Positions 4,530 to 63,414 of a stretch of 64,000 nt of DNA are shown piece by piece. Position numbers and translations under genes: made by a program. The notes below the pieces were generated by a model that was given only the letters and a program-made list of their open reading frames with translations, had not been told where the DNA came from and made no database searches. The first letter of the stretch is position 1. Every line of letters starts with the position of its first letter. The stretch is from Pelagomonas calceolata (taxonomy: Eukaryota). The DNA lies in the NCBI GenBank assembly GCA_918797485.1, contig CAKKNE010000002.1, positions 4,154,001 to 4,218,000 on the forward strand, read 5' to 3'.

Positions 4530-4551
4530 GCTAGAGCACTTGTGCGCTAGG
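4530..4551. promoter_or_regulatory. Degenerate CTAG-dyad intergenic element
   Basis: GCTAGAGCACTTGTGCGCTAGG between divergent DCP1 and TPR genes. Confidence 0.4.
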
Positions 4552-4745
4552 TGCTGAAACTTAATCACGCTTTTGCTGCATTTTGTAGCGGTAGCGCGTG
4601 GTGGCTTATTGTCGACGCGGGCACGTTTACAAACGTTTTACAGACGTGCTGTGGCATACCAGAGCACTGGTGCTGACTCCGCGCCCACCCGAGTGCTGTG
4701 CCATCCCTGCTGGGCTGCACTGCACAGGTGCACGCAAGCACAGCT

Positions 4746-5351
4746 ATGCAGTTCACCATCAATGCCCCAACCCTCCCAAAGCGCTACGAGCGCCCCGCCG
4801 CCTTCGCCGCCTTCGACGAAGATCAGCTGCAGGCCGCGCCCCGGGAAGAAAAGCCGCCGCGCGACCGCGAGGCATGTAGAAGAGACGGCTGCACGCTCGC
4901 GGCCGCCGGCCGCTGGGGCGCTGCTTTGGAACTGTTCGACGAGGCGTTAGCTATCGGCGGCGCGCCCGATCCGTGGGTGCTCCACGAGCTGCGGGCGCAA
5001 GCTTTGTTGGGGTTAGACCGGTGCTTCGAGGCGGCGCGGGCCGCGGAAGTATCTATAGCGGGCGCGCCGGACTGGGCGCCGGCGCACGCGACGCGCGCGC
5101 GCGCGTTGCTGAACTTCGGCGAGGTGGAAGGCTCAGTACAATCCTTCCGCCGCGCATTAAGCTGCGCGCCGGGCGACGCTGAGCTTAGAAGGGAGCTCGA
5201 CGAGGTCCTCGTGCTGGAACGGCGCCTGCAGGATTTGAGACGGGAACGCCTCGAGGCCGCGGCGAGCGCGTCGCATGCAGACGTGGCCGAGGTGAACCGG
5301 TGCAAGGCTGCCTTGCGATGCACGACCGATCCTAATAACATGATTACTTAA
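4746..5351 (+). CDS. TPR-repeat protein (TTC33-like)
   Basis: TPR-like helices: AGRWGAALELFDEAL, ELRAQALLGL, PDWAPAHATRARALLNFGEVEGS. Confidence 0.75.
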   Translation: MQFTINAPTLPKRYERPAAFAAFDEDQLQAAPREEKPPRDREACRRDGCTLAAAGRWGAALELFDEALAIGGAPDPWVLHELRAQALLGLDRCFEAARAAEVSIAGAPDWAPAHATRARALLNFGEVEGSVQSFRRALSCAPGDAELRRELDEVLVLERRLQDLRRERLEAAASASHADVAEVNRCKAALRCTTDPNNMIT

Positions 5352-7014
5352 AGCCCTCGACCCCGAACAGCCCCAACGCGAGCGCCACGCCGAAGCCCGT
5401 GCCCCGCTCGTTGTCCGTCGCGGGCCCCGCGAGGTCGACGTGCAGCCACTCGCCGTCCCAGCCCTCCCAGAGGTTCTCATAGATAAAGTTCGCGGCGCAC
5501 GACGACTGCGCGTTCATGCGGTCCTTCACCGAGTTCTTCGAGTCGGCCACTTTGGAAGCAAATTCACTTCTATAAAACTCCGGAGCAAATGGCAGCGGGT
5601 GCACGAGGTCGCCCGTCCGCCTGCCCGCGACGACGGCCTTCCGTTCGAGCTCCTCGGAGTTGGAAAAGACGGCGGCGTGGTTCTTGCCCGTGGCGACCTG
5701 TGTGGAAATCAAATTTCAGGCGCCCGACGCCATCGACGCGATGTTGTCTCCATAACTGCGTCTGCTCGATAGCGTTGAGGTTCCACGCCATCGACGCACC
5801 ATCTGCGCTCCTGTTAATGTGGCCATATCCACAACAATATCGACGCGCTTCCCCGGGAGCACGTTAGGTGCGGTGGCGTGCGCGACGCCGTCCGCGAGGA
5901 CCAATCTCCCTTCAGCGTCGGTGTTGTTGATCTCGCAAGTGCGCCCCCCGAAGAACTTGATTATATCATCGCATCGTAAAGCATCGTTACCGATCGCGTT
6001 CTCCGCGATACATAACACGCAGTGCAACGCGCTCAGTTCGCCGCCGCCCAACGCGCAGGCCGCTTCGAAGCCGGCCAGGCACGCCGCGCCACCCCCCAAA
6101 TCGGCCTTCATGCCCACCATACCTCCAGAAATCTTGAGGCTCAACCCGCCCGTGTCAAAACAAATAGTCTTGCCGACGAGCGCCGCGGCGGGACCCTCCC
6201 GATCAAAGGTCTTCGTGAGGACAACCAATGCCGGCGGCTCCTTCGCGCCCTTGCCGACGCCATAAACGCCACCGTACCCTTTCTCGCGTAGCTCCTCGCC
6301 CACGATCTTTGTGATGGAGATGCCGTCGCCTCTCGACGCCACTGCCTCTGCCTCGGCGACTAATTGAGTCGGCCCCATCTCGTTGGGTGGAGCGTCGTGG
6401 ATGCGCTGCGCGAGTCGGACGGCGTCCGCGGCGACGGCGCAGGCGTTGAGGGTCGCTGCGTCCGCCACGGGCGGCTCGAAGGAGACCGTGACGGTCCTAT
6501 CCTCGTCCTCGTCCTCGTCACTTGCCTTCTTGTTCGTATAAATGGGAAAGGCCTTGGCGACGGCGGCGGCGGCGGCGGCAGGCGTCGACCCGTCCTCGAG
6601 AAGCACGACGACGGCAGCATCTTTGCTGCCGCACGCGCCGCCGACGAGCGACGTGAGGGCGCGCGGCCGGAGGGGCGAGTTGTGCCGCGAGCAGTGCTCG
6701 GGCAGCACCGCCGCCACGACGGTCTCGAGGCCGTCGCCCTTGGGCATCGCCGTCCGGGCGCTCTTGCCGGCATCGCCCGGCGAGCAGCTCTCGACGAGCG
6801 GCTGCCACACGGCCGGCAGCGCGTCATTGTTCAATGCGAGGAGCCGGTCCTTGCGGCCGACGTAGACCGTGGTGTCCGCACTCGTCTGCTTGGCGTCGAA
6901 GCGCAGCGACGTCGTGGCCGCGCGCAGCTGCGTCGTCAGGCGCTGGCGTACGCTTGCACGTGGCCGAAAGGCTGCCGCATGACGCAGGAGCATCGCTGCG
7001 ATGACGAGTTGCAT
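5344..7014 (-). CDS. M17 leucyl aminopeptidase (NPEPL1-like), two exons, N-terminal signal/transit peptide
   Basis: VGKTICFDTGGLSLK, MKADLGG, NNTDAEGRLVLADG, DMATLTGAQ and HVDLAG motifs. Removing intron 5698-5799 joins ...TGAQM to VATGK in frame. Confidence 0.92.
5698..5799 (-). mobile_element. 102-nt GT-AG intron derived from an introner element (one TIR retained)
   Basis: Begins GTGCGTCGATGG and ends TTGATTTCCACACAG, identical to the TIR of the element at 58019-58200. Confidence 0.8.
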
Positions 7015-7099
7015 CGATTACTGCGACAAAGCGTGCCAGCACCGTCGATTGATGGCGACAATGCTGTGCCGGCAGCTCTTTGTGCCACTATATTTTCGA

Positions 7100-7123
7100 G
7101 CTAGCGGCCTGTAAGGCACTAGG
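7100..7123 (+). promoter_or_regulatory. CTAG-dyad intergenic element
   Basis: GCTAGCGGCCTGTAAGGCACTAGG in a divergent intergenic region. Confidence 0.7.
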
Positions 7124-7332
7124 AACCGGCAGCATGCAGCGGCAATTTGCGCCGCAGTAACCCAGCGCAAATCCCTGCTTAGATCAGGCACAGCCCGCAT
7201 TCACCCCTCGTGACGCCTGGCGCCGCTGAGCGACTCTCTTGCCCCGATTCTTTACGAGTTTGTAGCTTGCAGCCCCAACCACTGAAGTGCATCAATTAGC
7301 AATCACTCGCTTACGGAAAAGACTGCGCACGC

Positions 7333-8598
7333 ATGCCGCTGCTACTTCTCAAGCTCCCGGCCGACGTGCACACAAAACTAGCGGCATTCATTCACGCCAA
7401 TGATGCCGCGCGCTTCTGCTTCGCCGGGAAGGAGGCTTATAAGGCCTTCGGGCTCCAGGCCTGGCGCGCCTGTTTGTTCTCGACGCACGGCGGGTTAAGA
7501 ATAGGAAATGAACAAAACGGGTTGCACGCGGCGAGGCGCCTGGCCACGTGCGGCCGCGGCTGCCTCGGGTTCAGGGCTCTGGCCACGGACGGCGGGACCT
7601 TCGACGGGGGCGACAGCCGCTTCTGGGTCGACGCGTTATTTCGGCCGGAGCCCTGGCGCATCTACTGCTCGCGCCAGACGTCTGATCCAATTCTGTGCGC
7701 GGCGACGTTCCTCCCGGAGCGCGAGGCGGAAGACGTCGATTCCAGGGACCGCCACTGGATGTGCGAACTCATCATCGAGACGTGGAGCCTCGAACAATTG
7801 CAGGTCGAGCCCTTCTCGTCGAAGGACTACGCGCTCGGTTCTGTCTTCCTGCGGGTCTGCCACGGGCTGCGGGACGAGGACGTCGTTTCCTTGAACCTGC
7901 AGAACGGCCAGGAGGCAATTACCAAATACAGAGCCAAGATCCTGGAAATCGTGCAAAGGTTCAACACCACCGGCGCGCCGGCGATGCGCATCGGCCTCGA
8001 CAAGACGGTGTTTGCCCAGCGCGGCTCGGTTTCGGTTGATCCTAGAATAGAGGCGCTCGCGTCGAACGCGACGGCCGTCGCGACGACGCTGATAGTCAGG
8101 CGGCCGATCCCCGTGACGTGTCCCGGGCGTTTAGGGATCGTGTTTGGGTGTCGAAGAGCGCCTCGCGTCGGAGACCTCGACGGCCGCCTCAGGCGGGTCT
8201 GCGCGGACGCTACGCCATACATACGCGCGCTGGTCGACGGGCCATCGTCGCACATACTATCTAGAGGTCCGCGCGTGGAGCTGGGGCGGCGGTTGGGAGG
8301 TGTCCGACCCGTTTTACTCGCGGCGAGCTGCTCGCCGGAGCAGGGCGTCTGCTACCAGCTGCTCGGTTCAAACGACGACGCGGACGTCTTCCCGCTCGCT
8401 ATTTTTGGCTTCGGCGGGCGGAATCTCGACGATGCCTTCACGAGCCTCAGAGCGCGTTTTGAGAAACCGGTGACGCTGAAGGGCGTCGTCGTCGCGCTTC
8501 TGGAGGCGGAGCGGCGGCACGACGTGGTTGATCCAAACGTGGACATGGAGTTCGTCGGCTTGGAGGGGTACATGTACGAGGCGCCGCCGGAGACTTAA
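7333..8598 (+). CDS. Hypothetical protein with F-box-like N-terminus (tandem paralog 1)
   Basis: LPADVHTKLAAFI start; shares HGGLRI, WVDxLFxPEPWR and NVDMExVGxEGY blocks with 8881-10131. Confidence 0.7.
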   Translation: MPLLLLKLPADVHTKLAAFIHANDAARFCFAGKEAYKAFGLQAWRACLFSTHGGLRIGNEQNGLHAARRLATCGRGCLGFRALATDGGTFDGGDSRFWVDALFRPEPWRIYCSRQTSDPILCAATFLPEREAEDVDSRDRHWMCELIIETWSLEQLQVEPFSSKDYALGSVFLRVCHGLRDEDVVSLNLQNGQEAITKYRAKILEIVQRFNTTGAPAMRIGLDKTVFAQRGSVSVDPRIEALASNATAVATTLIVRRPIPVTCPGRLGIVFGCRRAPRVGDLDGRLRRVCADATPYIRALVDGPSSHILSRGPRVELGRRLGGVRPVLLAASCSPEQGVCYQLLGSNDDADVFPLAIFGFGGRNLDDAFTSLRARFEKPVTLKGVVVALLEAERRHDVVDPNVDMEFVGLEGYMYEAPPET

Positions 8599-8657
8599 TT
8601 TTTCGGTAATATTGTTGGTTCGGAGGGCTTTAAAGCCCGTTCCTAGGAATCCCGAAG

Positions 8658-8681
8658 GCTAGCGGCCTGTAAGACACTAGC
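8658..8681 (+). promoter_or_regulatory. CTAG-dyad intergenic element
   Basis: GCTAGCGGCCTGTAAGACACTAGC, 200 bp upstream of ATG 8881. Confidence 0.75.
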
Positions 8682-8880
8682 ATTGTAGCAAGCAAGCAAG
8701 CAGCCAAAAAGCGCCGCTGCTCGGCGCCGGCTGCTGTGCTTGACGCGTTTGCCCGTGCATTCGACGCTTCGAACTCTCCGGCACTGCTCCTCAACGCGTG
8801 CGGGCCGCTTCACGTCACACAATCACCAATCACTGTCAGTGGCTCTCGGACACTTATATAGGTGCTCAGCTTAAGAAACC

Positions 8881-10131
8881 ATGCCGCGGACGCGCAGCTC
8901 GATTGCGCGTGCAGCCCCCAAGCCCCACAAATTGCCCACTGACATCTTGACGCGCGTCGCGGCCTACGCGTGCGACGACGAGCTCGCCCGGCTCGCGCTG
9001 TCCGCGAAAAGCGCTCTCGCAGCGTTAGACAACCAGCAGATCTGGGCCGCGGCGGTGCGGACGAATCACGGCGGCTTGCGGATTCGCGCCGACGAGCCGA
9101 GCGGTCTCAAGGCGGCCGCGCGCCTCGCCGAGGCGCGCACGAACAGGGGCCCGGTCTACGGCTGCCACGCGCTCGCGTCGGACGTGACGTCCTACGGCGG
9201 CGGTCCCTACTGGGTCGACGGGTTGTTCCAGCCCGAGCCGTGGCGCGTGTTCTATGGAGCTATGGGGGACGGGCGCGTCCTCTGCGCCGCCACGTTTCTG
9301 ACGGGGGGTACCTACGACCCCGACCGCCAGTGGATGATCGATGCGCTCCTTGAGCTGTTCGATAATTGGGATTTACAGAGGAACTACTCGCAGTGGATCG
9401 GGACGTGTCCGGATACCGTGGAGGCGGTCTTCCTTCGCGAATGCGGCCCCAGTGGAACGGCGGCACGCTGGGGCCAGCGGGTTAGTCAAAAGTGCGAGGA
9501 GATTGAGGGCCGCTTCGAAGCGGGCGAGTCGCGGTCGCGGATCGGGCTAGCCGCGACCGCGTTCGAGGAGCGCGAGGGCGTGACGGTGGACACGCGCGTC
9601 GAGGCGTTGTGCGGCGGCGCGCGCCAGGCGACCGTCGTCGTGACGGCTATCGTAATCCGCCGACCGTCGGACTACGCGACGCGCCCCGGCCGCCTCTTCC
9701 TCGTGTTCGGGTGCCGGCGCCCGCCGCGGGTGACTGACGTCTCCGACGGCCGCCTGAAGCGACTTGCTGGTGATGCGACGGCGTTGTGTCGCACGCTCAT
9801 GGACAACCCGATTCGTAAGTGGGTTGGGGGTATCGCGGGAATGTTGGGGCTCGGATGTACGGCTGCTCGATCTCTGCGGGCAACCCGCCACAAGAGTGAG
9901 GTATACGCATACCAGCTCTTTGGAAGCGACGAGGAAATCTTCCCGCTGGCTATTTGCGGCTTCCGGCAAGACATCGACCCGGAAGTTACGGACTTTCGCG
10001 CAGAGCTCTGGAAACCGGTGGCGATCCAAGGGATCATCGTCGCTGTTCTCGAAGTCGACAATGGCGATCCAGCCATAGGCGTCAACGTCGACATGGAGTA
10101 CGTCGGCGTCGAGGGCTACACCTACGAGTAA
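8881..10131 (+). CDS. Hypothetical protein with F-box-like N-terminus (tandem paralog 2)
   Basis: LPTDILTRVAAY; collinear similarity to 7333-8598. Confidence 0.7.
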   Translation: MPRTRSSIARAAPKPHKLPTDILTRVAAYACDDELARLALSAKSALAALDNQQIWAAAVRTNHGGLRIRADEPSGLKAAARLAEARTNRGPVYGCHALASDVTSYGGGPYWVDGLFQPEPWRVFYGAMGDGRVLCAATFLTGGTYDPDRQWMIDALLELFDNWDLQRNYSQWIGTCPDTVEAVFLRECGPSGTAARWGQRVSQKCEEIEGRFEAGESRSRIGLAATAFEEREGVTVDTRVEALCGGARQATVVVTAIVIRRPSDYATRPGRLFLVFGCRRPPRVTDVSDGRLKRLAGDATALCRTLMDNPIRKWVGGIAGMLGLGCTAARSLRATRHKSEVYAYQLFGSDEEIFPLAICGFRQDIDPEVTDFRAELWKPVAIQGIIVAVLEVDNGDPAIGVNVDMEYVGVEGYTYE

Positions 10132-10144
10132 GTATCACAACATG

Positions 10145-11491
10145 TTATCCGATCCCGCGAGCGACGTGCGCCGCCCAATGCAACGCCTCCCGAAAGCGGG
10201 GTTTCTCGTCCCAGGCCTGCTGCGTCGGCGCCGGCGTCGCCTTGATGCCGCGCTCTCTCCGTATCCGCTCGGCGAGGTCGAAGTCTGGGCCTTCGTCGGG
10301 GTAGCTGGGCTTCGGCGGCACCCACTTCGTCGCGTAGAGCGACTCCTCCTTCCGCCAGGCCTTGACCCAGTCCGCTTCGCCCTCGTACTGCGGAGGCAGG
10401 GGCGCCCAGGTGCCCTTGCCCGTCGGATCGCGGTCGTACGATTGATCTGTCACGCCCATCAGGGACCACGTGTTCAGGTTGCGCAACGTATCTACGACTC
10501 TCGCGTTTCTAGGAGCACAGCAGGGCACGTTGTCCTTTCTCTTCGCGTAGCACGCGCTGCAGTCCCCGGGGCTCCAGCAATTTGCGACCGCGCGACTCAT
10601 GCCCGGCTCCCAGGGCACTGTATAGACCTTGGCCTGCGTCGCGAGCATGGCCGCTGCTTGACTTAGCGGAGAGTGGCCCAGGAACAGGTTCGGAGCCGTC
10701 ACGAGGCCGTGGAAGGTCTCGGCCGGGTCGCCGTTTAACACAAATGTAACATCTTCCTTCACTAATTCCCCGAACTGCTCCACCGAACCTTCGGAGAATA
10801 TGCAGATCTTCGCGTTCTCATCGCTTTTCTTTATGGACCTCACCAAACAAACATACGTAGCATTCGGCACGAGGCCGTCCCTATGCATACCTCGACGCGC
10901 GTGGATCCGATAGTCACACTCGAACTGCTTCGTCGGATGTGCTACGGCATCGTACATCTTCCGTAGTTCCTTCCTCACATTGATATCGGCGACCATGTAC
11001 CATTTTATATCATTTGGCTTCAAGAACCTAGGTACCACACTATTCTTCGCCTTGCCGGCTTCGTAAGTAGAACATCGTTCGTCGGACTTGAGACCACTGA
11101 TGTCATGTGGCATGGGGCTGTGCACGTAGCAGCACCCGCGGTCCGGCACGCGCCTACAAAGCGCGAAGACGGCCATGCGCTGCAGGTATTGTCCCCCGAA
11201 GCCCGCGGCGTGCTGGCCCGCGGGATAATAGGCCTGCACGCGCGGCGGCTTGTTGGCGTCGTAGCGCTCGCCCTTGGGTGGCGGCGGTGGTGGTGGCTTC
11301 TTCACCGCGCGGCCCCCGACGAAGGGCGCCCGCGTCGCCGCCTCGGCCTCGCGCGCCCGCTGCCGTCGCTTCAGAAACTGCTGGCGCTGATTTCGTAGGC
11401 TCGGCGAGAACTGGAGCCGGCGCGTCGTGTTCGCAGCGTCGGTGGCGGTGCTGTGTGTCAGCAGCGTGGCTGCGAGCAAAACGAGCGGCAT
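10145..11491 (-). CDS. Secreted/Golgi protein with glycosyltransferase (GT11/GT23-like) motifs
   Basis: Signal peptide MPLVLLAATLL. IHARRG, IFSEG and TFHGLVTAPNLFLGHSPLSQAAAML resemble fucosyltransferase-type GT-B motifs. Confidence 0.55.
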   Translation of the reverse strand: MPLVLLAATLLTHSTATDAANTTRRLQFSPSLRNQRQQFLKRRQRAREAEAATRAPFVGGRAVKKPPPPPPPKGERYDANKPPRVQAYYPAGQHAAGFGGQYLQRMAVFALCRRVPDRGCCYVHSPMPHDISGLKSDERCSTYEAGKAKNSVVPRFLKPNDIKWYMVADINVRKELRKMYDAVAHPTKQFECDYRIHARRGMHRDGLVPNATYVCLVRSIKKSDENAKICIFSEGSVEQFGELVKEDVTFVLNGDPAETFHGLVTAPNLFLGHSPLSQAAAMLATQAKVYTVPWEPGMSRAVANCWSPGDCSACYAKRKDNVPCCAPRNARVVDTLRNLNTWSLMGVTDQSYDRDPTGKGTWAPLPPQYEGEADWVKAWRKEESLYATKWVPPKPSYPDEGPDFDLAERIRRERGIKATPAPTQQAWDEKPRFREALHWAAHVARGIG

Positions 11492-11611
11492 CGCTGCCCG
11501 CGGCCGCGCTGTCGCGCGCATGGATGGTCCAGCAGGCCCGCGCGCTGCCCGGAGCCTGCGCCACGCTCTCGTGCGTTCGTCCTGCGCCGCCCCACCGATT
11601 TTTGGCTGCTT

Positions 11612-11634
11612 GCTAGTGCCTTACGGCCGCTAAC
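11612..11634 (-). promoter_or_regulatory. CTAG-dyad intergenic element
   Basis: GCTAGTGCCTTACGGCCGCTAAC upstream of minus-strand ATG 11491. Confidence 0.65.
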
Positions 11635-11654
11635 AAGAATCACACACCAACAAA

Positions 11655-12434
11655 TTACTCCGCGCGCAGCTCCCGCGCGAGGCGCTCCGCCTCGAGCGCG
11701 TCCTCGTCGACGCGCCTTTGGATAAACACCGTGCCGTCGCCCCACGCCTCGCGCATGGTGCCCGTCCAGCGCAGCTCGAAGTCGTCGGACGGTAAGGGAG
11801 CCGTCATCGTGATGAAGTAGCAGCCCGGGTCCATGTTCGAGGCCATCCTTGCAAGGGTCTCCATGAGCTTCCGGTCGAAGCATGTGGAATTGGCAAATAC
11901 GACTCGTGATGAAATCCACTCGTCGATCACCGTAGCGTCGCCCCGGATGAAATTGACGTCGACTTCCCGCCTCGTCTCCGACTCCATCTTCTCGCGGATG
12001 TGCAGGTCGAACCTTGGCAGCAGCTTCTGGTCACACAGTTCGTGCAGCCCCTCGAGGATCTCGATGCCCAGCACCTTGTCGAAGTCCCACGAGAGAGCTG
12101 CGGCGAAGACCGCGCGCCCCGCACCGGACCCCAAGTCGCAGAACTTGCCGCCCGGCTGCAGGCCGTCGTTCCGGAGCACCTGAAACAGCCCCGCGAAGGG
12201 GCCGAAACAAATTTCGCCGTACGTCAGCGACGCCGCCACGAAGCCATGCTGTCGCCGTTCTTTCCGGGACGTGCGCTTGCCGACGTGCTGGGGGTAGAGC
12301 TCGTAGAGCTGGTTGTAGAGGTGCTCCTCGGGCGTTGGAGGTGTCGGGTCCGTGAGGCCCTGCTCCTCGAGGTAGCAGCGGTGGTCCCTTATTTTATATG
12401 GAGAGAAGCTGCCCTCGAGCTCGTCGGCGCCCAT
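11655..12434 (-). CDS. DOT1-domain class I SAM methyltransferase
   Basis: LTYGEI, FCDLGSGAGR, GIEIL, FIRGD and VFANSTCF motifs. Confidence 0.8.
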   Translation of the reverse strand: MGADELEGSFSPYKIRDHRCYLEEQGLTDPTPPTPEEHLYNQLYELYPQHVGKRTSRKERRQHGFVAASLTYGEICFGPFAGLFQVLRNDGLQPGGKFCDLGSGAGRAVFAAALSWDFDKVLGIEILEGLHELCDQKLLPRFDLHIREKMESETRREVDVNFIRGDATVIDEWISSRVVFANSTCFDRKLMETLARMASNMDPGCYFITMTAPLPSDDFELRWTGTMREAWGDGTVFIQRRVDEDALEAERLARELRAE

Positions 12435-12474
12435 GGCGCTGTTTTGGGCAGCCCTGTGATGGGCTGCGCTGCGC

Positions 12475-12496
12475 GCTAGTGTGTCGCTACACTAGC
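12475..12496. promoter_or_regulatory. CTAG-dyad intergenic element (variant)
   Basis: GCTAGTGTGTCGCTACACTAGC, 40 bp upstream of ATG 12434. Confidence 0.55.
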
Positions 12497-12596
12497 ACCG
12501 TCTTCCGTTTCTGGGCCGCCAGACCCATTGAAGTTGATTGAACCATGGCAACTACTAAGTTAGTAGTATTAACAACGTTTAGTCAGAACAGAAAAA

Positions 12597-13475
12597 TTAG
12601 TCGAGCACGTCCTCCACGGGCGTCGTCGGCAGCGACACAAGAATCGGGCGGAAAATTGGTGCAGGCAGCGCGGCGTCCGCGCGCTCGACGGCGTAGAGTT
12701 TCAGGCCGTCGACGCGCTGGGCCGCGAAGCCGAGGTCGTCCAGCGCTATGCCATGGAGCGAGTCCGCCCGCCGCCGCAAATTGAAACGCGGCAGCGCGCC
12801 CCAGAAGTACGCTTCCACGTCAGACCGGGGATTGTAGAGGACGAGGCAGACGCCATTCATCGAAAGCAACTCGGCAATCGTCGAAGCCAACGCCTCCATC
12901 GTCGCCGCCGCCACGGTTAAATCAGTAGCTTTTAGGGCGTAGAGGCACTCCGAGGCAATCACGAGGTCCGCCCGTCCATGAACGCGGGCGAACGCTTGAG
13001 CGTTGGCGCGGCCCCAGCTTAATGAAGCCGCTCGCACCGTACCGGAGAAGCCGTCATTACGAAGATGGTCCTCGAGCGCTTTGGACGAGGCGGCAATCAT
13101 CGAGGGCACGTCCGTCGCGTAGGTCTCGAAGCCGCAGAAGGCTGCACATGTTGCGGGGATGGCCGCCGCGCCGCAGCCTAACTCAATTGCGACGCCTCTT
13201 CTCTGGGATTTACCTTCGTGCTTCAGGATGCGGGCCGCCATGACGCTTGCCCCTCGCCACACGGCCCGGCCCGTCGGGTCGCCGCTGTTCGTCTGCGATT
13301 GTGGTGCACGTAACGGGAAGGGCAAACCAGGGATGACCACGTCTACGCCCGGTCGGAGGTGCTCGCACGGGTGCAAAAAGTGCTTCGCGCCGTGCGGGAA
13401 GAGCGGGTGCGGCACGAGCTGCGTGCAGTGCGGGCGCCAGTGGGCCGCGTCCGGCGTGGGCTGGGCGACGAGCAT
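12597..13475 (-). CDS. Methyltransferase family 16 (METTL21-like protein lysine methyltransferase)
   Basis: TGRAVWRGASVMA, IELGCG, ATD, LSWG and DLVIASECLY motifs. Confidence 0.8.
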   Translation of the reverse strand: MLVAQPTPDAAHWRPHCTQLVPHPLFPHGAKHFLHPCEHLRPGVDVVIPGLPFPLRAPQSQTNSGDPTGRAVWRGASVMAARILKHEGKSQRRGVAIELGCGAAAIPATCAAFCGFETYATDVPSMIAASSKALEDHLRNDGFSGTVRAASLSWGRANAQAFARVHGRADLVIASECLYALKATDLTVAAATMEALASTIAELLSMNGVCLVLYNPRSDVEAYFWGALPRFNLRRRADSLHGIALDDLGFAAQRVDGLKLYAVERADAALPAPIFRPILVSLPTTPVEDVLD

Positions 13476-13661
13476 GGTTTCGCGGCGACGGCGTCGGGGG
13501 TCCGAGCAGGCTGGCTGCAAAGCTCACTCAGGTGTGCACACAACTTAGGTAGAGATGCCGTTGCGGAGGATCTGTCTCGAGGATGCTGTGAGCGATTCTT
13601 TGGTTGCAAGGGCCGGAGGATGCCGCAAAATAGGTTAGGATGCTTCCCAAAAATATAATCT

Positions 13662-13685
13662 GCTAGCGTCCAGTAACACACTAGC
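13662..13685 (+). promoter_or_regulatory. CTAG-dyad intergenic element
   Basis: GCTAGCGTCCAGTAACACACTAGC in a divergent intergenic region. Confidence 0.7.
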
Positions 13686-13829
13686 GGAATTGATTTTGCC
13701 GAGAGCACCAGCCCGTAAAAGAGCTAGGCAGGCCGGGGCCGCGCCTCAGTCGAGCCCCGGGCAGCCCCATTGGTCGACGGCAAGCGTCGGAATAGCCGCG
13801 CACCCATACTCGACGCGTTCGGGCAGCCC

Positions 13830-14657: not shown

Positions 14658-14662
14658 TGTAC

Positions 14663-15967: not shown

Positions 15968-16118
15968 GGTGCGATGGGGCAGCGCTGCGCCGCTGTTACT
16001 GGGCCGCTGGGCTTCGGCCTCTCTCCGGCCGCGTGGCTAGTGGCTTCCTTTCCGCGGGGAACGGTGTGTCGCCGGTGGATGGCTCTCGAGAGCGATCCCC
16101 GCGTGGGAACCCTGCGCG

Positions 16119-16140
16119 GCTAGCGTAGTATGGGCACTAG
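16119..16140 (+). promoter_or_regulatory. CTAG-dyad intergenic element (variant)
   Basis: GCTAGCGTAGTATGGGCACTAG in a divergent intergenic region. Confidence 0.55.
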
Positions 16141-16184
16141 AGAGAACAAAAGAGCAGGAGCCAGCGCAAACAACCCCAGAAATC

Positions 16185-16940: not shown

Positions 16941-16975
16941 TGTTACGGTGCTAGAACTAGTGGGCGGGGCCCCTG
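16941..16975 (+). repeat. 35-bp dispersed repeat, copy 1 (starts TGTTACGG)
   Basis: TGTTACGGTGCTAGAACTAGTGGGCGGGGCCCCTG; 34/35 identical to 33975-34009. Confidence 0.8.
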
Positions 16976-24370: not shown

Positions 24371-24393
24371 GCTAGTGTGTTACAGGACGCTGC
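24371..24393 (-). promoter_or_regulatory. CTAG-dyad intergenic element
   Basis: GCTAGTGTGTTACAGGACGCTGC in a divergent intergenic region. Confidence 0.6.
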
Positions 24394-24450
24394 TCGCAGC
24401 TATGCCCATAGATGGGTGGCAGAGCCTTGTGATTTTACCGCTCCGCCACC

Positions 24451-26970: not shown

Positions 26971-26994
26971 GCTAGTGTCTTAACAGACGCTAGC
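26971..26994 (-). promoter_or_regulatory. CTAG-dyad intergenic element (faces the GT90 gene)
   Basis: GCTAGTGTCTTAACAGACGCTAGC. Confidence 0.75.
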
Positions 26995-27002: not shown

Positions 27003-27026
27003 GCTAGCGGCCTGTAAGACACTAGC
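27003..27026 (+). promoter_or_regulatory. CTAG-dyad intergenic element (faces the Gig2-like gene)
   Basis: GCTAGCGGCCTGTAAGACACTAGC, identical to 8658-8681. Confidence 0.75.
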
Positions 27027-28432: not shown

Positions 28433-28435
<3 letters not shown>

Positions 28436-30581: not shown

Positions 30582-30605
30582 GCTAGCGTCGTGTGAGGCA
30601 CTAGC
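30582..30605 (+). promoter_or_regulatory. CTAG-dyad intergenic element
   Basis: GCTAGCGTCGTGTGAGGCACTAGC in a divergent intergenic region. Confidence 0.7.
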
Positions 30606-32296: not shown

Positions 32297-32318
32297 CCTA
32301 GCGCACAAGGACACTAGC
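32297..32318 (+). promoter_or_regulatory. CTAG-dyad intergenic element (variant)
   Basis: CCTAGCGCACAAGGACACTAGC in a divergent intergenic region. Confidence 0.6.
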
Positions 32319-33974: not shown

Positions 33975-34009
33975 TGTTACGGTGCTAGGACTAGTGGGCG
34001 GGGCCCCTG
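33975..34009 (+). repeat. 35-bp dispersed repeat, copy 2
   Basis: TGTTACGGTGCTAGGACTAGTGGGCGGGGCCCCTG. Confidence 0.8.
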
Positions 34010-36755: not shown

Positions 36756-36845
36756 CTTGCACGACGGTTGCTGCAGAGCTGCACACTGCTGCAGCAAGTC
36801 TTTCCTGGCACCGCTGCGAGGCAAAAAAGGCTTCAGCTGCAGCGA

Positions 36846-36869
36846 GCTAGCGGCGTGTAAGACACTAGG
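36846..36869 (+). promoter_or_regulatory. CTAG-dyad intergenic element
   Basis: GCTAGCGGCGTGTAAGACACTAGG in a divergent intergenic region. Confidence 0.75.
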
Positions 36870-39304: not shown

Positions 39305-39326
39305 TCTAGCGTCCGATTCCACTAGC
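39305..39326 (+). promoter_or_regulatory. CTAG-dyad intergenic element (variant)
   Basis: TCTAGCGTCCGATTCCACTAGC in a divergent intergenic region. Confidence 0.5.
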
Positions 39327-41487: not shown

Positions 41488-41512
41488 GCTAGTGTGTCTT
41501 TTGGACGCTAGC
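41488..41512 (-). promoter_or_regulatory. CTAG-dyad intergenic element
   Basis: GCTAGTGTGTCTTTTGGACGCTAGC in a divergent intergenic region. Confidence 0.65.
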
Positions 41513-49807: not shown

Positions 49808-49831
49808 GCTAGTGTCTTACAAGACGCTAGC
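49808..49831. promoter_or_regulatory. CTAG-dyad intergenic element (most symmetric copy)
   Basis: GCTAGTGTCTTACAAGACGCTAGC; 20/24 positions match its own reverse complement. Confidence 0.75.
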
Positions 49832-53046: not shown

Positions 53047-53069
53047 CCTAGTGTCTTACTACCGCTAGC
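53047..53069 (-). promoter_or_regulatory. CTAG-dyad intergenic element
   Basis: CCTAGTGTCTTACTACCGCTAGC in a divergent intergenic region. Confidence 0.7.
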
Positions 53070-56022: not shown

Positions 56023-56044
56023 GCTAAGCGGTCTAAGACACTAG
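56023..56044 (+). promoter_or_regulatory. CTAG-dyad intergenic element (variant)
   Basis: GCTAAGCGGTCTAAGACACTAG upstream of ATG 55883. Confidence 0.6.
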
Positions 56045-56185
56045 AGGTGATTCTGCGCGGAGACTTACGCCGCCGCCGCGAGGCCTACTCAAGAACGATC
56101 ACGAGTTCTTATCCGGACTCGTATCATCTACTCGTATCGACCACGACGCCCGCGGGCTCACTGCGCGCAAGACGATACGGCCGAG

Positions 56186-56742: not shown

Positions 56743-56766
56743 GCTAGCGGAATGTAAGGCACTAGC
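56743..56766 (+). promoter_or_regulatory. CTAG-dyad intergenic element
   Basis: GCTAGCGGAATGTAAGGCACTAGC upstream of ATG 56927. Confidence 0.75.
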
Positions 56767-56926: not shown

Positions 56927-58331
56927 ATGCTCGCATTCCTGCTCCTAAGTTGTGCACAAGCGCTCAACCCCGCAGCGCTCGCCCGCGAGGCGCTCGTCGA
57001 GTACCGCGCCAACGAACGCATCGCGCCCGACAAGGTGCTGGCGAAAGTGCTCCGAACTAATCCGTGCACGGACGGCGAGCGCCGCGCGGCGGCCGACGCA
57101 TTCCTAGGTACCGCGGCCCGGCTGCGGCGCTACGAGTGGCTCTGCAAAGACGTGCACGGGGATGCTGAAGAAATAGCGGCGTCACTGCTCCAAGCGAGGG
57201 ACGAGGACCGGACCACGACGGAGTGGCCGTCGGACCCGAACGAACGGCTGAGCGTCGAGAGCGGCGCGCCGCTCTGGCTCTGCGCGCGCTGGCGGCGCGA
57301 TCTGGGCGACGACGAAGCGCGAGCCGTCGCGTTCGCGTCGACGAGCCGCGGGCCTGTCACGTTGCGCGTGAGAGACGAGGTTGCCATAGACGCCGTCGAG
57401 GCGTCCCTCGGCGTGCGAACCGCGAGACCGCCTCGAAACATTGGTGCGCCCCGCGCGCTGACGCTGACCGAGGGCCGGCCGCCCGGCGGCGTCTGGGCGC
57501 TGCCCGGCTGGGAGGAGGCGTTGTTTGAGGTGCAGGACGCGGGCTCGCAAGCAATTGTGGAGGCGTGCGGCGATGGCTTCGGCACGGCCCTGGATATGTG
57601 CGCGGGCAACGGCGGCAAGTCCATACCGCTCGCGGCGCGCTGCCGAGAGCTCTGGTGCCACGACGTCGACACCGAGCGCCTGAAGCGCCTCCGCGCGCGG
57701 GCGCGCCGCGCCGGCGTGTCTGTTCAATGTACGGATGGAACTCTTCCGGATGCGACGTTCGACCTCGTCCTCGTCGACGCGCCCTGCAGCGGGTCGGGCG
57801 TTTTGAGGCGGCTCGGCCGCACGATGAGCTTCGACGTAGCTGATGGTGACGAAGAGGATCTCGCCGCGCGCCGGCGCAGCCGCGACCGAGTAGTCCACGC
57901 GCGCGCGGACGATGCGCTTGCTGATTTCGCTCGCTTGCAGCTCTCGCTGTTGCGCAATGCCGCGGCGCGGTGCGGCGATCGGCTCGTCTACGCGACGTGC
58001 TCGACGCTCCGCGAGGAGCTGTGTGGAAATCAATTTTACGGCGCGTTCGTGCTGAATCGCCGCGTCGACCTCCACGCCATCGACGCGACGTTGTCGGTTC
58101 CTCACCGCCCGACGGAGCCAGCGCAGCCACGTCATCGCCGAGAAATGACTTAGTGAAGAATTATCGGGTGCACCCGACACACCGGTTGATTTCCACACAG
58201 GCGAGGAGAACGAGGACGTCGTGGCGGCGTTCGACGACGAATCCTTCGAGCTCCTAGACACGCGACGGCTCCTGCCCGGCCCGTGGCACGACGGGTTTTT
58301 TGTGGCGCGGTGGCGACGGCGGTCTGTGTAA
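56927..58331 (+). CDS. RsmB/NOL1/NOP2/Sun-family RNA m5C methyltransferase, two exons (intron 58011-58200)
   Basis: EVQDAGSQ, LDMCAGNGGKS and LVDAPCSGSG; splicing restores YATCSTLREENE...HDGFFVARW. Confidence 0.9.
58019..58200. mobile_element. Introner element (non-autonomous DNA transposon), 182 bp
   Basis: Perfect 15-bp TIRs CTGTGTGGAAATCAA / TTGATTTCCACACAG; 8-bp TSD GCGAGGAG at 58011-58018 and 58201-58208. Confidence 0.93.
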
Positions 58332-58367
58332 GAGTGTTTTCTGTGACCCCTTTTACCAAGATGATCC

Positions 58368-59663
58368 TTACCCAAAGTCCCGCACGTCTGACGGCGGCCC
58401 ACCCCTGTCGATCGCAGCCCTAATAACGTTCTGCAGCTCCATGGCCGTCGGCCTTTCCACAAACTCCGCGTGTCTCCTATAAGCCCCTCTTCCAATATCC
58501 ACGAAGATCTCGTAGGGCGCCGGGTAGCGCCGCGAGACGACGACGCGCACGGGAGGCGTCCCGCCGCGGACCATGAGCGGCCGCAGGCAATACGCCTCCG
58601 TCGCGTCGAAGTACTCGCGCGGCGGCTCCGCTCCGCCCGGCTCGTCGTGCCGATGGTTCAACACAACAACGGGTAAATTCTTGAATGCCGCCGCTCGGAA
58701 CACCCGCCGCGTGGCCACCATGTCCTCGTTGGAGAACGGCGCGAAGACAACATATAAAGTCGACTCGGGCGTCTCCTCTTCATTGGCTTGCCCGAAGTTT
58801 AGGAGCAGCGGCTCCGCGGTGATGCCCGCTTCCTCCGCGAGGCGCGTCGTGCCGGCCGCGTCCAACAGCACCAAGTTATCGTAGGGTAACCGCGAGAGGG
58901 CGTTCTTGGACCAAGCTAAGACAGCGGAGCCATCGATCGTTTTTTGAGCTGGATCTAAACCCTCCACGCGCGCCTCGATCAAAACTTTCCGCTTCCCTTC
59001 GAGCACGGCAGCCACCGTCGCGTCGCACGCGTGCCGCGCCGCCTCCGCGAGGTCTAGGGCCACACCGTCCGGCACGGCGGGCCGCGCCTCGCCGGCGCCT
59101 CCTTTCGGATTCAGGGCCTCCGCGAGGCCGTCGGGCAGGTCCGACGACGGCATTGACGGCTCCCGGGCCTCGGGCGTGCCGCGCTCTTCCCTCAGCTTCG
59201 AGAGCTCTTCACCAAGACTGTCCGTCGGCTCGTCGGGCGCGCGGCTCTTCTTCCGGCGGCCGAAGAGGCCCCTTTTTTTGGTTTCGTCGGCGCCCGGCTC
59301 GTCCGCGGCGGCGGCCGGTGGTGTCTCCGCCTCCGCGGCCGGCGAATCGCCGCCGCCGCCGAATAGCGCATCCATGCGCGCGCGCATCGCCGCGTCGTCG
59401 TCGTCCGCTGCGGCCGGCGGTACCGGCTCTGGCGGCGCCTCGGCGGCCGGCGGTTCGGCGGCCGGCGGCTCCGCGGCCGGCGCCTCGCCGCCCCCGAACA
59501 TCGCCTCCATACGTGCGCGCATCTCGGCGATGCGCTCTGCTTCGGCGTCACTCTCCGGTGGCCTCTCATCGTCCACTGCTCGCAACGCTGGTGTACGCTG
59601 TGGCAGCGGTGGCCGCAGGACAAAGGATTGCACGCATGCGCATGCCGCGAGCAAGAGTTTCAT
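58368..59663 (-). CDS. Plastid-targeted DUF1995-like protein (paralog A)
   Basis: MKLLLAACACVQS-F presequence; VVFAP, PVVVLN, YCLRPL and RRYPAPYE motifs. Confidence 0.7.
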   Translation of the reverse strand: MKLLLAACACVQSFVLRPPLPQRTPALRAVDDERPPESDAEAERIAEMRARMEAMFGGGEAPAAEPPAAEPPAAEAPPEPVPPAAADDDDAAMRARMDALFGGGGDSPAAEAETPPAAAADEPGADETKKRGLFGRRKKSRAPDEPTDSLGEELSKLREERGTPEAREPSMPSSDLPDGLAEALNPKGGAGEARPAVPDGVALDLAEAARHACDATVAAVLEGKRKVLIEARVEGLDPAQKTIDGSAVLAWSKNALSRLPYDNLVLLDAAGTTRLAEEAGITAEPLLLNFGQANEEETPESTLYVVFAPFSNEDMVATRRVFRAAAFKNLPVVVLNHRHDEPGGAEPPREYFDATEAYCLRPLMVRGGTPPVRVVVSRRYPAPYEIFVDIGRGAYRRHAEFVERPTAMELQNVIRAAIDRGGPPSDVRDFG

Positions 59664-59933
59664 CGTCTGGCGATCTGTGCGCGGTGCGTTTTGAGTCGTG
59701 CGCAAGTTCTATACGTTTGCGTTGCGCTTGGCGCCGCGCGCGTGCCCGATCCAACTCTGAGATGCCGGCCGATGGAGAGCGGCTGATGGAGAGCGGCACC
59801 CAAACCGCTCCAAAATTGCCTCACGAATCGATAAAAAGCCTCCGTTGCGCTTAACGGGTGCCGAGCGATGCGTGCCTAGTTTGCTTGCGCTTCCCGACGT
59901 GCCCGCGGCAGAGGACCTGCCTGCAGCACAACA

Positions 59934-60770
59934 ATGCGAGCTGTCTACCTCTGCGCGGTCGCAGCAGCCCTGCGGCCCGCGCCACGGACGCGACGACGGA
60001 CGCGCCTCGGGTCGTCGACCGACGTCGACGACTTCCGGCAGCGCCTGGAGGCCGGCGCCTTCTTCCTCGACGACGGCCGACACGACGTCATCGCGTGCGA
60101 CACGCGGCAGGCCGCGCAGCATGCTGGGGAGGCGCTAAAGGCGGCCGTGCTCACGGGCGAGCGGCGTTGTGTGATTGACTGCCGCGTCGACACCTTCGAC
60201 TCGACGTCGCGCCGCTTCGCCGCCGACGACACGGCGAGATGGATAAGACGCTGCGCGAACGAGGTCGCGTTCTTCTTCGAGACCTGCACGCTGCTCTACC
60301 CGCAAGCCGCGTCCGGCGCGGCGCCGACGGCGGCCGGGCTGCCCGTCGAGCCCCTCCTCAAAAAATGGGGGCAGGTCATGGACGGCTCCGAGGACCACGG
60401 TTTGGCACCGACGGACTGTTTCTTCGTCGTGTCGCCGTCGACGTTTGACGAGCTCGTGGCGCTGCGACGGTTGTACCGAGCGGCGATGGCGGCGCGGGCG
60501 CTCATCGTCGTCGTGAACCACGGCTTCGAGGCGCCGCCGCCCGAACTCGAGGAGGCTTCGGAAGTCTACCGGCTCCAGCCCCTCGATATCGAGGAGCCAT
60601 CCACAGGGAAAGTCGCGCGCGTCTGCGTGTCGCGGCGCTTCCCCGCATCATATGAAGTTTACGCTGCACGCGGAAAACAGTACGAGGCGTCGAATCGGGG
60701 TGTGTTCAAACAAAAACCGGACGACGCCGTCGTGCGGGCCGTGGCAAGACAGGTCCTAGATGAAAGTTGA
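59934..60770 (+). CDS. Plastid-targeted DUF1995-like protein (paralog B)
   Basis: Signal peptide; collinear similarity to 58368-59663 (AAVL.G.R, EPLL...GQ, NH, Y.L.PL, VSRR.PA.YE). Confidence 0.7.
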   Translation: MRAVYLCAVAAALRPAPRTRRRTRLGSSTDVDDFRQRLEAGAFFLDDGRHDVIACDTRQAAQHAGEALKAAVLTGERRCVIDCRVDTFDSTSRRFAADDTARWIRRCANEVAFFFETCTLLYPQAASGAAPTAAGLPVEPLLKKWGQVMDGSEDHGLAPTDCFFVVSPSTFDELVALRRLYRAAMAARALIVVVNHGFEAPPPELEEASEVYRLQPLDIEEPSTGKVARVCVSRRFPASYEVYAARGKQYEASNRGVFKQKPDDAVVRAVARQVLDES

Positions 60771-60919: not shown

Positions 60920-63172
60920 TCACGAAGAGTCAAAGGACGCGGGAGGCAGCACCTTCTTCTTCTTCTTGGATTTGGACGAAGTAGACCCCATGTCGACATA
61001 CGCCTGCTGGTTGTTGATGGGCACGTAGGCCTGGCCCGTCCGTTGTTGCGCGTGTTGGAGGATAGAGAGCGAGCCGGCACCCGCGGACATCTTGATACTG
61101 CGTTGCCGTTCCGCCTCGCGCGCCGCGAATTTTTCGGTTTTCTTCTTGCCGGGGCCCTTCCCATGAAATTTGTGGCACATCTGCCGGAAAGCTTCTTTGC
61201 GCGTGAGTAATTTGCCGTCGGCGTCCCTATATTCTAATTTAATAGGCTTGAAGGCAATATCAGCGTTCTGCGCCGCCAACCTTTGGGCTTCGGCCATATC
61301 TTCACCGGAAGTGCCGTCGCTCTTGAAGTCCCGACGATCGCGCGCTCGGCCAATGCTCGCCTCGACGTGCTGCGTCTGGACGTCTCCGGTCTGCCTCAGT
61401 AAACCCATGGTCGCGGCCATGCCATCTCGAGCGAGCGGTTGTTTATGTAAGAAATCCACCAATTCGCCGCGCGCCTCCGCCTCGGCCGCCTCGACGCTCT
61501 CGTCGTCTGAAGGAGGTGCTTCTTCCATCACTACATCATCAGTCGTTTTCTCTTCCTTGGCCTGGGCGCGTTCCTCCAGTCGCGCTCGTAGTCGAGCCGT
61601 GAATTCGGTTGTTGACGTGAACACTAAGGCGTCCGTGGGCTCCGCGGTGTCTTCGGGAGCCTCCTCCTTGACACGAGCCGCCAGCGCCGCCGCGCCGGCC
61701 TCGCCCGTCGGTTTTTCACTTTTGAGCCTTCTAGCGCGATCTAAGGCGGCCCGCAATTCCGCATCATCTTCGTCCTCGCCGAGACCGCTCACGTACTTCT
61801 GCGAAGACTCCTGTTCAGTGACGGGAGCGTCGGGGATGGCGCGCGCGGCTTGCGCTGTAGACTTCACCTCATCCACGGACGCCCCGAGGCCCTTGCCGAG
61901 GTTGTTTTGCGCCGTCTTCTGCGCCGCCGCCCAGTTCGCCTTTCGGCGCTGGTCGTCGCCGTCGTCCGCCTGGACCCGTCGCGATCGCGATCCTCGTTCC
62001 CCATCGACCTCCTCGAGGCCGTCGAGGATGGACCCGGTCGACGGCAGCGCCTTCCTGGAAGCTTTCCGAGCTTTCTTTTCCTTCTTCCTAAATAACTTCC
62101 GGGCTTCGTCTCGCGTCAGGTAGTCGTTCTGCGTCTCGAACGCGGCGGAAGACGCGTCGACGCCGCCCCAGCGGCCCGTACGTAAAGTACTGGTGTCATT
62201 CGTGTCCATCTTGGCGTTCGGAGCTTTGCCCATCCTCTGAGCTAACGCAGCGATGTCCGCGCCCGACAAATGCGACTGATCCTTAGCAGACAACCCGCCA
62301 CTACTACCAATCTTCAGCTTGTGGGCCTGCTTCGTCCGATCATCATATTTCGCCATCACAGAACCCCCAGCAGTAGTGCCAGTGGCATACTCGAAATCAT
62401 CTGCCACGTCACCGCCCATGTGCAAGGCTTGCTCCTCCTGCAACTCGACGCGCTTCCGCCGGATCTTGTCGTCTTCGGCGCGATTGACGTTCTGGAGCGT
62501 GTGCTGCGACTCCTTCTTCAAACCGACCAATTTCCCATGTTCGTTGCGCTCCAAAATGTGTTCGTCCTCCAGCGTCAGAATCATCTCGTCGCCGACTTTG
62601 AGCGCTTCCGCGGAGTGGGCGGCCACATTCAAGCCCTCTAAATCGTTAGATGTATAAGCTCGCTCTTGATCCAACTGGAGTCTCCGTCTTCGTTCCGCCT
62701 CCAAGGCTACGAGCTGCGGGTCCTCCTTCTGGCGCCGTTGGCGCTGGACCCACGCTTTTGCATCATCTACCTCGTCTCCTAGCGTCGATTCGGGGAGTTT
62801 GGCCGAAGCTTCTCGTCTTCTCTTCGCCTTGGCTAATTCCGCTTCGATGTCCGCCAATCGTCTAGCTTCTAGTCTCTCAGCTCGAGCGAGCTCGAAGTTG
62901 CGCTCGGCCTGCTCGCGAGCTTTGGCTGCGGCGCTCGACACTTCCGCGTTGAGGGGCTTTAATCCAAGTTTCGCTCTCAGCGCGTTCGTGTCGTCGACGG
63001 TCATGGAGACCTCGCCGTCGGCGCTCGTGGAGACCTTGACGCTCTCCGCTAATTTAGCGTAGTCGACGCGCTCCGGTGCTGGCGCGGCCTTGGGCGGCTC
63101 GCGGCGCGGGCGGCGGTCTCGGCTGCGCGAGCGGCTGCGCGAGCGGCTGCGCTTGCGGTCGCGGCGGCCCAT
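60920..63172 (-). CDS. SART1: U4/U6.U5 tri-snRNP-associated protein 1 (SART1/Snu66)
   Basis: RS-rich N-terminus; HIND motif SMTVDDTNALRAKLGLKPL; ILTLED; LEYRDADGKLLTRKEAFRQMCHKFHGKGPGKKK. Confidence 0.93.
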   Translation of the reverse strand: MGRRDRKRSRSRSRSRSRDRRPRREPPKAAPAPERVDYAKLAESVKVSTSADGEVSMTVDDTNALRAKLGLKPLNAEVSSAAAKAREQAERNFELARAERLEARRLADIEAELAKAKRRREASAKLPESTLGDEVDDAKAWVQRQRRQKEDPQLVALEAERRRRLQLDQERAYTSNDLEGLNVAAHSAEALKVGDEMILTLEDEHILERNEHGKLVGLKKESQHTLQNVNRAEDDKIRRKRVELQEEQALHMGGDVADDFEYATGTTAGGSVMAKYDDRTKQAHKLKIGSSGGLSAKDQSHLSGADIAALAQRMGKAPNAKMDTNDTSTLRTGRWGGVDASSAAFETQNDYLTRDEARKLFRKKEKKARKASRKALPSTGSILDGLEEVDGERGSRSRRVQADDGDDQRRKANWAAAQKTAQNNLGKGLGASVDEVKSTAQAARAIPDAPVTEQESSQKYVSGLGEDEDDAELRAALDRARRLKSEKPTGEAGAAALAARVKEEAPEDTAEPTDALVFTSTTEFTARLRARLEERAQAKEEKTTDDVVMEEAPPSDDESVEAAEAEARGELVDFLHKQPLARDGMAATMGLLRQTGDVQTQHVEASIGRARDRRDFKSDGTSGEDMAEAQRLAAQNADIAFKPIKLEYRDADGKLLTRKEAFRQMCHKFHGKGPGKKKTEKFAAREAERQRSIKMSAGAGSLSILQHAQQRTGQAYVPINNQQAYVDMGSTSSKSKKKKKVLPPASFDSS

Positions 63173-63390
63173 TGCTTGTTTCTTACGGCGTTACCGTGCG
63201 CTTCTTAACGTGCGCTTGCGCCGCGCGGCGCTCGCCTCAGGCTGGTCTGAGGGTTTTGTTGCCGGCGCTTCGGCGGCGCGCCAAAAAGCAAGCAGAGCGC
63301 GAAGCACAGCGATGAATGAGGTCTGCAGTCGTATGAGCGCTTGCCTTGCTTTCGTCGAGGCTGCGCCGCGCTTTGCTTGTGCTTGGGCTT

Positions 63391-63414
63391 GCTAGTGTCT
63401 TACAAGCCGCTAGC
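63391..63414 (-). promoter_or_regulatory. CTAG-dyad intergenic element
   Basis: GCTAGTGTCTTACAAGCCGCTAGC in a divergent intergenic region. Confidence 0.75.

Follow-up and report, generated by a model that had tools for sequence, protein, structure and literature searches.

The element analyzed in this work is a polar pseudo-palindrome of 24-28 bp with a conserved spacer, repeated upstream of genes in a 64,000-nt stretch of the Pelagomonas calceolata genome (contig CAKKNE010000002.1, positions 4,154,001 to 4,218,000; the whole stretch is called the window below). Several described systems resemble it. According to the available part of PMC8163841, sites of the yeast factors Reb1 and Abf1 are likewise asymmetric, reside in promoters of unrelated genes and have poly(dA:dT) nearby; for Reb1, a symmetric action was reported whatever the motif orientation. 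The Staf/ZNF143 binding site (SBS), as presented in the accessible sections of PMC3082894, is also long and asymmetric and is over-represented in head-to-head promoters, where one site is enough for two-way transcription. The oomycete motifs INR (YCAYTYY), FPR (MWTTTNC) and DPEP share with the element a stramenopile host, TATA-less promoters and lineage specificity (PMC3599244, accessible part). Finally, miniature inverted-repeat transposable elements (MITEs) or other elements with terminal inverted repeats (TIRs), as well as Helitron 3' ends, are similar as short dispersed repeats, in the inverted CTAG halves and in the CTAG end (PMC2817418, accessible part).

We report the sequence of the element, its polarity, its 5' placement, genome-wide spread and flanking tracts, its retention between paralogs and a few RNA 5' ends nearby. 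On balance, we consider that a general promoter factor likely binds the element and permits initiation in two directions.

Structure and statistical significance of the element

The original prediction listed about 20 copies of a dyad-symmetric motif with a drifting spacer of 9-12 bp. All 20 coordinates do carry the element or its weak form (19 clear copies and one weak), though neither the symmetry nor the drifting spacer was observed. With the copies turned to one orientation, the consensus was (A)GCTAGCG-K-C-Y-TGTAAG-R-CACTAG-C-AAG; the spacer, which measured 8-11 bp when the halves were taken as 7 bp, has the consensus TGTAAG. Apart from the selected matches there were 34 half-site pairs: 31 joined a CG half to a CA/TG half, three were TG+CA and none was CG+CG. 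The distance from CTAG to CTAG was 16-20 bp in 32/32 cases found within 6-44 bp, and exactly 18 bp in 17 of them. The pairing of a CG half with a CA/TG half, together with the conserved TGTAAG, argues against a plain symmetric homodimer site. A symmetric palindrome with a free spacer was therefore rejected, while the more general idea of a regulatory factor serving many promoters agrees with the placement described below.

In the window, 10 copies fit the pattern GCTAGYG-N(8-11)-CRCTAGC perfectly and 17 fit it when one mismatch was allowed, compared to 0 and 0-1, respectively, in each of 10 order-4 Markov simulations. The CTAG tetramer itself occurred at the expected frequency (134 observed, 135.5 expected), and so the signal is in the pairing of CTAGs: 18 pairs were 16-19 bp apart, 10 of these at 18 bp. 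We also built a matrix from 19 window copies, with the copy at 56023 excluded. The 19 copies scored 16-39 bits and the excluded one 11 bits. In the leave-one-out mode, 14/19 copies stayed at 19 bits or higher, while the copies at 4530, 24371, 39305, 12475 and 16119 dropped to 8-14 bits. Given the Markov simulations, the shuffles and the matrix placement, chance or base composition was rejected as the origin of the copies.

In 119 distinct contexts from outside the window, positions that the search pattern left free (9, 10 and 24-28) still matched the consensus, with C at 83% in position 9 and C, A and A at 73%, 68% and 73% in positions 24-26. Conservation ended at about 28 bp; beyond it the 119 distinct flanks had background composition, and no conserved sequence followed CACTAGCAAG in these contexts.

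Placement with respect to genes

The window is gene-dense, with 63% GC. Copies were present in 14/17 divergent gaps, in 5/9 tandem gaps and in 0/17 convergent gaps, with none in coding DNA. At a threshold of 14 bits, the matrix had 19 matches in 8.7 kb of 5' gaps, where shuffles would give 0.04, and no matches in 54 kb of genes or in 1.2 kb of convergent gaps. As convergent gaps are short, the lack of copies in those of the window does not by itself reach significance per base (P=0.09). The claim that the element is 5' intergenic and absent from coding sequences (CDSs) thus holds at this threshold; a weaker CDS look-alike, at 40363, scored 13.4 bits. The look-alike formerly seen at 2205 in a convergent gap fell below 8 bits. 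Isolated GCTAGC was not enriched in the 5' gaps of the window.

As many as 33/43 gene starts in the window adjoin a copy-bearing gap, and a scan of 37 proteins bore out that the neighbouring genes are functionally unrelated; they include DCP1, an M17 peptidase, a DOT1-like protein, a cupin, a MiaB-like radical SAM protein, mTERF and SART-1. In six element-free gaps of the window the matrix found nothing above 4.2 bits. De novo counts of 8-12-mers, made in element-free gaps for a second promoter class, yielded mainly GC-rich and introner words.

The median distance to the ATG did not differ between the CACTAG side (about 170 bp) and the opposite side (about 180 bp; P=0.31). The copy was central in 35/41 divergent cases. 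In tandem gaps of at least 500 bp it was closer to the ATG in 7/8 cases; the element is therefore tied to the gene start and not to the stop. Runs of four A or T were frequent at 4-30 bp from the two edges (60/163 and 65/159 flanks) and much less so in the next 26 bp outward (20/162 and 19/159). In the interval starting 5 bp out, TTTT was present in 47/322 flanks versus 11.6 expected.

Copies outside the window and conservation

A scan of metagenome contigs with the exact pattern produced at least 122 loci (123 stretches) in 2/64 parts of the collection, or an estimated ~4,400 overall. Megablast to the window matched introner repeats only, and so these loci are other genomic sites. When 20 of their proteins were queried, 7/18 clusters included named P. 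calceolata proteins; in the four pairs compared, identity was 99.4-100% for three and 91% for one. These named proteins were spread over five chromosome-sized contigs, while six chromosomes are given for the genome in the accessible text of its preprint (Guerin et al., bioRxiv 10.1101/2021.10.25.465678). The element is spread genome-wide in Pelagomonas, as had been anticipated.

Genes in the outside loci were predicted by a model trained on the window. After two loci (L078 and L118) had been excluded as duplicates of L002 and L037, 287 kb remained, 60% of it coding. None of the 122 pattern matches was in a CDS; 71 faced a gene start, one was convergent, six had only a gene end adjacent and 44 had no adjacent gene call. 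The matrix added 23 further copies with about one chance match expected, none in a CDS and 21 facing a gene start; one of the 23 (L064:4205), where a contig ends, in fact matches the pattern. Among gaps not chosen for a match, a copy was present in 9/20 divergent and 5/28 tandem cases (introns may inflate the tandem count) and in 0/49 convergent cases. The absence from these unselected convergent gaps had P=0.016 per base.

These unselected gaps were less often occupied than those of the window, and hence a large share of genes has the element, though probably a smaller one than the window suggests. The assertion that it precedes most genes was right for the window and did not extend to the outside loci. 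The density was 0.12-0.30 per kb, or about one copy per 3-8 kb. Scaled to the 32.4-Mb genome (Guerin et al., accessible text of the preprint), it gives an estimate of 4,000-10,000 sites. Judged by read depth in run X3, the 8658 sequence would have roughly 180 near-identical copies, a figure too crude to be used as evidence.

The element might instead serve a process other than transcription. A protein of replication licensing, recombination hot spots or the insulation of closely packed genes could bind it and merely share the open DNA of promoters. In favor of this, a copy can fall 20-60 bp past an upstream stop codon, and copies are hardly constrained in their orientation. Short A/T tracts are likewise compatible with replication origins. 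Eukaryotic origins, however, are usually far sparser than one per 3-8 kb, and the absence from convergent gaps along with the tracking of the ATG in long gaps point to promoters. We regard a non-transcriptional role as very improbable.

Two scans of viral contigs gave no matches, and a viral origin or use was rejected. Genomes labelled as prokaryotic had three matches, in three marine metagenome-assembled genomes (L123, L124 and L125; 60-66% GC), all with the consensus at unselected positions. The flanks of L124 and L125 were identical even though one is labelled a bacterium and the other an archaeon. All three are probably mis-binned Pelagomonas DNA; the one protein looked up from these contigs had no named relative. 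As a separate observation, one window protein that was searched had its best named match in Aureococcus anophagefferens (65%).

Two comparisons bear on conservation. Paralogs A (7333) and B (8881) lie in tandem and share 40% amino acid identity, and their promoters align poorly (170/416 columns). Their elements, 209 and 199 bp before the genes, are identical in 22/24 bases. In addition, an orthologous divergent gene pair from two lineages with 82-85% nucleotide identity, about 83% over coding DNA (L008 and L020), has the element at the same site with differences in the spacer only; both loci had been selected for a match.

RNA 5' ends

Poly(A) RNA and DNA runs from one organism contain the window sequence. 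Stranded reads were taken from two runs of one sample over positions 4,000-16,500 (12.5 kb; 20/28 begin/end rows), and 'end' rows were interpreted as RNA 5' ends, which in poly(A) RNA-seq are not the same as capped ends. Ends on the minus strand were found at 4494 (a pile-up for DCP1; 35 bp from the element edge; run X21, 7 molecules), at 12431 (43 bp from the edge of the 12475 copy) and, as a pile-up, at 13623, 38 bp left of the 13662 copy (runs X21 and X22). On the plus strand, a pile-up was at 13714, 28 bp right of the same copy (run X21), and ends were at 16157 and 16160, 15-18 bp from the edge of the 16119 copy. In this small sample, the 13662 copy had 5' ends on both sides and the 16119 copy had a near end on the right side only. 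At three genes the 5' leaders, 116-226 nt long, nearly reach the element. The RNA 5' ends near the element edges, with the two-way starts at 13662, are suggestive and not proof; with 15-43 bp to five edges, this small sample is in line with the proposed two-way role close to transcription starts.

These data raise a more specific explanation, in which the motif is a two-way core promoter element whose factor recruits the pre-initiation complex, sets starts at fixed short distances and replaces TATA and the initiator (Inr). The short distances, almost mirror-placed at 13662, and the leaders extending nearly to the element favor it, as does the lack of TATA at any fixed offset among 322 flanks, where the strongest fixed-offset words were TTTT/TTTTG at 5-27 bp. 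On the other hand, start distances ranged over 15-43 bp with one at 123 bp, and ends from poly(A) RNA-seq do not mark caps. Furthermore, the orientation bias is weak, whereas core elements are typically strand-biased (PMC3599244, accessible part). Such a role seems unlikely.

A hairpin or RNA element was rejected: two single copies, tested on both strands, fold like shuffles (z from -0.2 to -1.2). The listed RNA 5' ends fall downstream of the element, which also counts against an RNA element. No Rfam family reached its gathering score, either in the window or in 13 loci.

Possible relation to mobile elements

The copies could instead be ends or remnants of mobile elements that insert in open promoters without any need for a host function, or that seeded the sites before co-option. 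Compared with factor sites, the element is indeed unusual in its length, information content and uniformity, and introner elements are active in the genome (Guerin et al., accessible text of the preprint). At 62 bp, the inverted pair 26971/27003 resembles a TIR element, and its predicted fold is strong (z -7.4). Moreover, a 30-bp GC-rich module was present at 2-65 bp from the G-half in 5/164 sites (L002:1344-1373, L008:747-776, L014:4120-4150, L019:1434-1463 and L119:273-301), always in the same orientation and never without the element; it could be the site of a second factor or a relic of copying. Three pairs of loci (L001/L090, L080/L081 and L014/L053) share flanks, which could stem from paralogous promoters, from copying or from the presence of a second factor site.

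Against this origin, no target site duplication (TSD) of 2-9 bp was detected among 157 sites; the best offsets gave 17 versus 10.3 for 2 bp and 7 versus 2.8 for 3 bp, with none at 8-9 bp. Most flanks were unique and at background, the inverted orientation occurred in only 1/5 close pairs, and there was no shared internal sequence. The predominance of one copy per promoter and the retention in paralogs of 40% identity point to selection. A MITE or TIR remnant was rejected, as there was neither a TSD of constant length nor a pair of inverted termini around a common body. So was a Helitron 3' end: T follows CACTAG in 2% of 119 sites, in conflict with the CTRR|T rule for the host T, and the position of the GC-rich 16-20-bp hairpin, 10-12 nt before CTRR, is occupied by the spacer of the element. 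For most copies, then, we saw no equal frequency in CDSs or convergent gaps, no TSDs and no larger repeat context, any of which would have spoken against the original prediction. We rate the mobile-element explanation as quite improbable. The termini of CACTA transposons share the letters CACTA with the element and are a lead only.

A repeat shared by L014:3700-4300 and L053:1-110 includes a variant element and a 24-bp palindrome, to which L014 adds telomere-like TTAGGG units. No convergent-gap copies other than these were found.

Proposed mechanism

For a general promoter factor permitting two-way initiation, the mechanism might be as follows. One protein or a heterodimer would read both halves (GCTAGCG and CACTAGC) jointly with the TGTAAG core, tolerating 16-20 bp from CTAG to CTAG. 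The putative factor would hold the promoter open with the assistance of the A/T tracts, and RNA polymerase II could then start on either side. It may act as a barrier or as an activator, by analogy with yeast Reb1/Abf1 or human ZNF143. Because the proposed output is nearly symmetric despite the asymmetry of the site, one copy could serve two head-to-head genes.

Several observations weigh against this interpretation. The gene models of the window were made by hand and were not curated. Three of the window's 17 divergent gaps lack a copy, and so the element is not required for a divergent gap; conversely, two copies lie in a predicted convergent, repeat-rich gap of L014. The CACTAG half is toward the gene in 17/24 tandem gaps (P=0.064), so that orientation may matter a little. 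The A/T tracts had no preference for the gene-facing side (40/152 vs 5/24), and the tracts at Reb1 sites are direction-specific (PMC8163841, available part), while those of the element have no bias to the transcribed side. No nucleosome-scale periodicity of CG, GC or WW and no phased profile was detected around 164 sites. The read data come from two runs of one sample over 12.5 kb; one minus-strand 5' end (15995) is 123 bp from the 16119 copy, the ends at 12345 and 16304 are inside genes, and only four 5' ends are informative, with 3/4 within 45 bp (P about 0.05). The longer flanks shared by a minority of the copies belong here as well.

A bolder, doubtful version is that thousands of promoters run from one bipartite element of 24-28 bp, which replaces TATA/Inr as a core promoter working in both directions. 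Here a lineage-specific factor, possibly a domesticated transposase, would set starts 15-45 bp to either side. If true, such a two-way core element would let genes pack head to head in a highly abundant ocean alga.

Individual copies and other features of the window

The following copies are in divergent gaps: 24371..24394 (-), weak, with a degenerate G-half; the inverted pair 26971..26994 (-) and 27003..27026 (+), 8 bp apart; 30582..30605 (+); 32297..32318 (+), short; 36846..36869 (+); 39305..39326 (+), weak and short; 41488..41512 (-), long; 53047..53069 (-); 56023..56045 (+), the weakest, with 11 bits; and 63391..63414 (-), ahead of the SART-1 gene. The weak copy 4530..4551 (-), with 16 bits and 8.9 in the leave-one-out mode, separates the divergent DCP1 and TPR genes, and 7100..7123 (+) separates the divergent M17 aminopeptidase gene and paralog A (7333). 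The divergent gap with 16119..16141 (+) also has a 10-bit half-site at 16036-16059. Tandem gaps contain the consensus copy 8658..8681 (+), 199 bp ahead of paralog B (8881); 11612..11634 (-), 20 bp past the upstream stop codon; 12475..12496 (no strand assigned), with two TG/CA halves, ahead of the DOT1-like gene; 49808..49831 (-), with the G-half toward the gene; and 56743..56766 (+). The copy 13662..13685 (+) is flanked by the divergent RNA 5' ends 13623 (-) and 13714 (+).

Two DUF1995 paralogs are head to head at 58368-60770 with no element in the gap. In the element-free tandem gap at 34980-35516 (537 bp), a small gene or exon may have escaped annotation. At the apparent N-terminus of a probable minus-strand gene at 36459-36780 there is no ATG downstream of the 36846 element; the gene may start at another codon, an exon may have been missed, or the sequence may be in error.

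A second repeat, of 33 bp, with two close CTAGs and a GC-rich tail, is present at 16942-16974 and 33976-34008, 120 and 36 bp past a stop codon; these are two copies in the window and there were none in 120 loci. Introner-like high-copy repeats are at ~5696-5800, 58020-58200 and 3440-3510. The copy near position 5.7 kb had a very high read depth in the DNA runs, and the copy near 58 kb matches several loci. Among the genes, one open reading frame at 22088-24181 fuses NMT1/THI5-like, tetrahydrofolate dehydrogenase C-terminal and pterin-4a-carbinolamine dehydratase domains, and the MiaB-like radical SAM protein at 41710-44058 has an N-terminal rotamase domain. The best named non-pelagophyte matches of the ureidoglycine aminohydrolase at 38229-39095 are bacterial (~68-69%), and its gene was possibly transferred from bacteria.

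Comparison with known systems

The literature search found no description of the element, subscription papers being outside its scope, in agreement with the earlier statement that no description was known. Neither 12-base core string occurred in the papers listed, which by title are unrelated molecular studies. In the accessible main text of the genome preprint (Guerin et al., bioRxiv 10.1101/2021.10.25.465678), the words 'promoter' and 'motif' do not occur. The element is probably undescribed so far, and pelagophyte promoter architecture appears to be unstudied. At an estimated 4,000-10,000 sites, such a long, high-information motif would have few equals in pervasiveness among known algal promoter elements. 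The element offers a handle on a master promoter factor, on gene-start prediction and on one- or two-way expression cassettes in Pelagomonas, and it helps to ask how compact genomes share promoters. It is also usable as a marker, since 3/3 matches in prokaryotic genomes look like mis-binned algal contigs.

The motif GCTAGC of Toxoplasma AP2XI-5 is a hexamer site that shares letters with the element, and is a lead only. MITEs and Helitrons differ from the element, which has no TSD, no common body and no CTRR|T, and whose single copies fold like shuffles. The oomycete motifs, each found in 7-18% of genes, are strand-biased, 7-16 bp long and located at the start or beyond it (PMC3599244, accessible part). 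By its letters, the TTTTG/TTTTGC tract beside the element resembles FPR. In contrast, the element is upstream of the RNA ends, works in two directions by its placement and has a different sequence; its consensus matches none of YCAYTYY, MWTTTNC and SAASMMS.

The SBS of ZNF143 has a fixed length of 18 bp with a CCCR core at positions 3-6, is bound by C2H2 fingers and serves a subset of divergent pairs (PMC3082894, accessible sections). The element, on the other hand, has 22-25 bp, variable spacing and two CTAG halves and is present in 45-82% of divergent gaps; its consensus does not match the 18-bp SBS consensus with CCCR at 3-6. A ZNF143-like trait is the enrichment in divergent over one-way gaps (14/17 vs 5/9 in the window, 9/20 vs 5/28 outside). 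Compared to Reb1 and Abf1 sites, the element is much longer and bipartite, with RNA ends 15-43 bp away, and it is not known to resemble the Reb1 and Abf1 motifs in sequence. By analogy, therefore, the element would work like the sites of Reb1/Abf1 and ZNF143, while by sequence it belongs to neither family.

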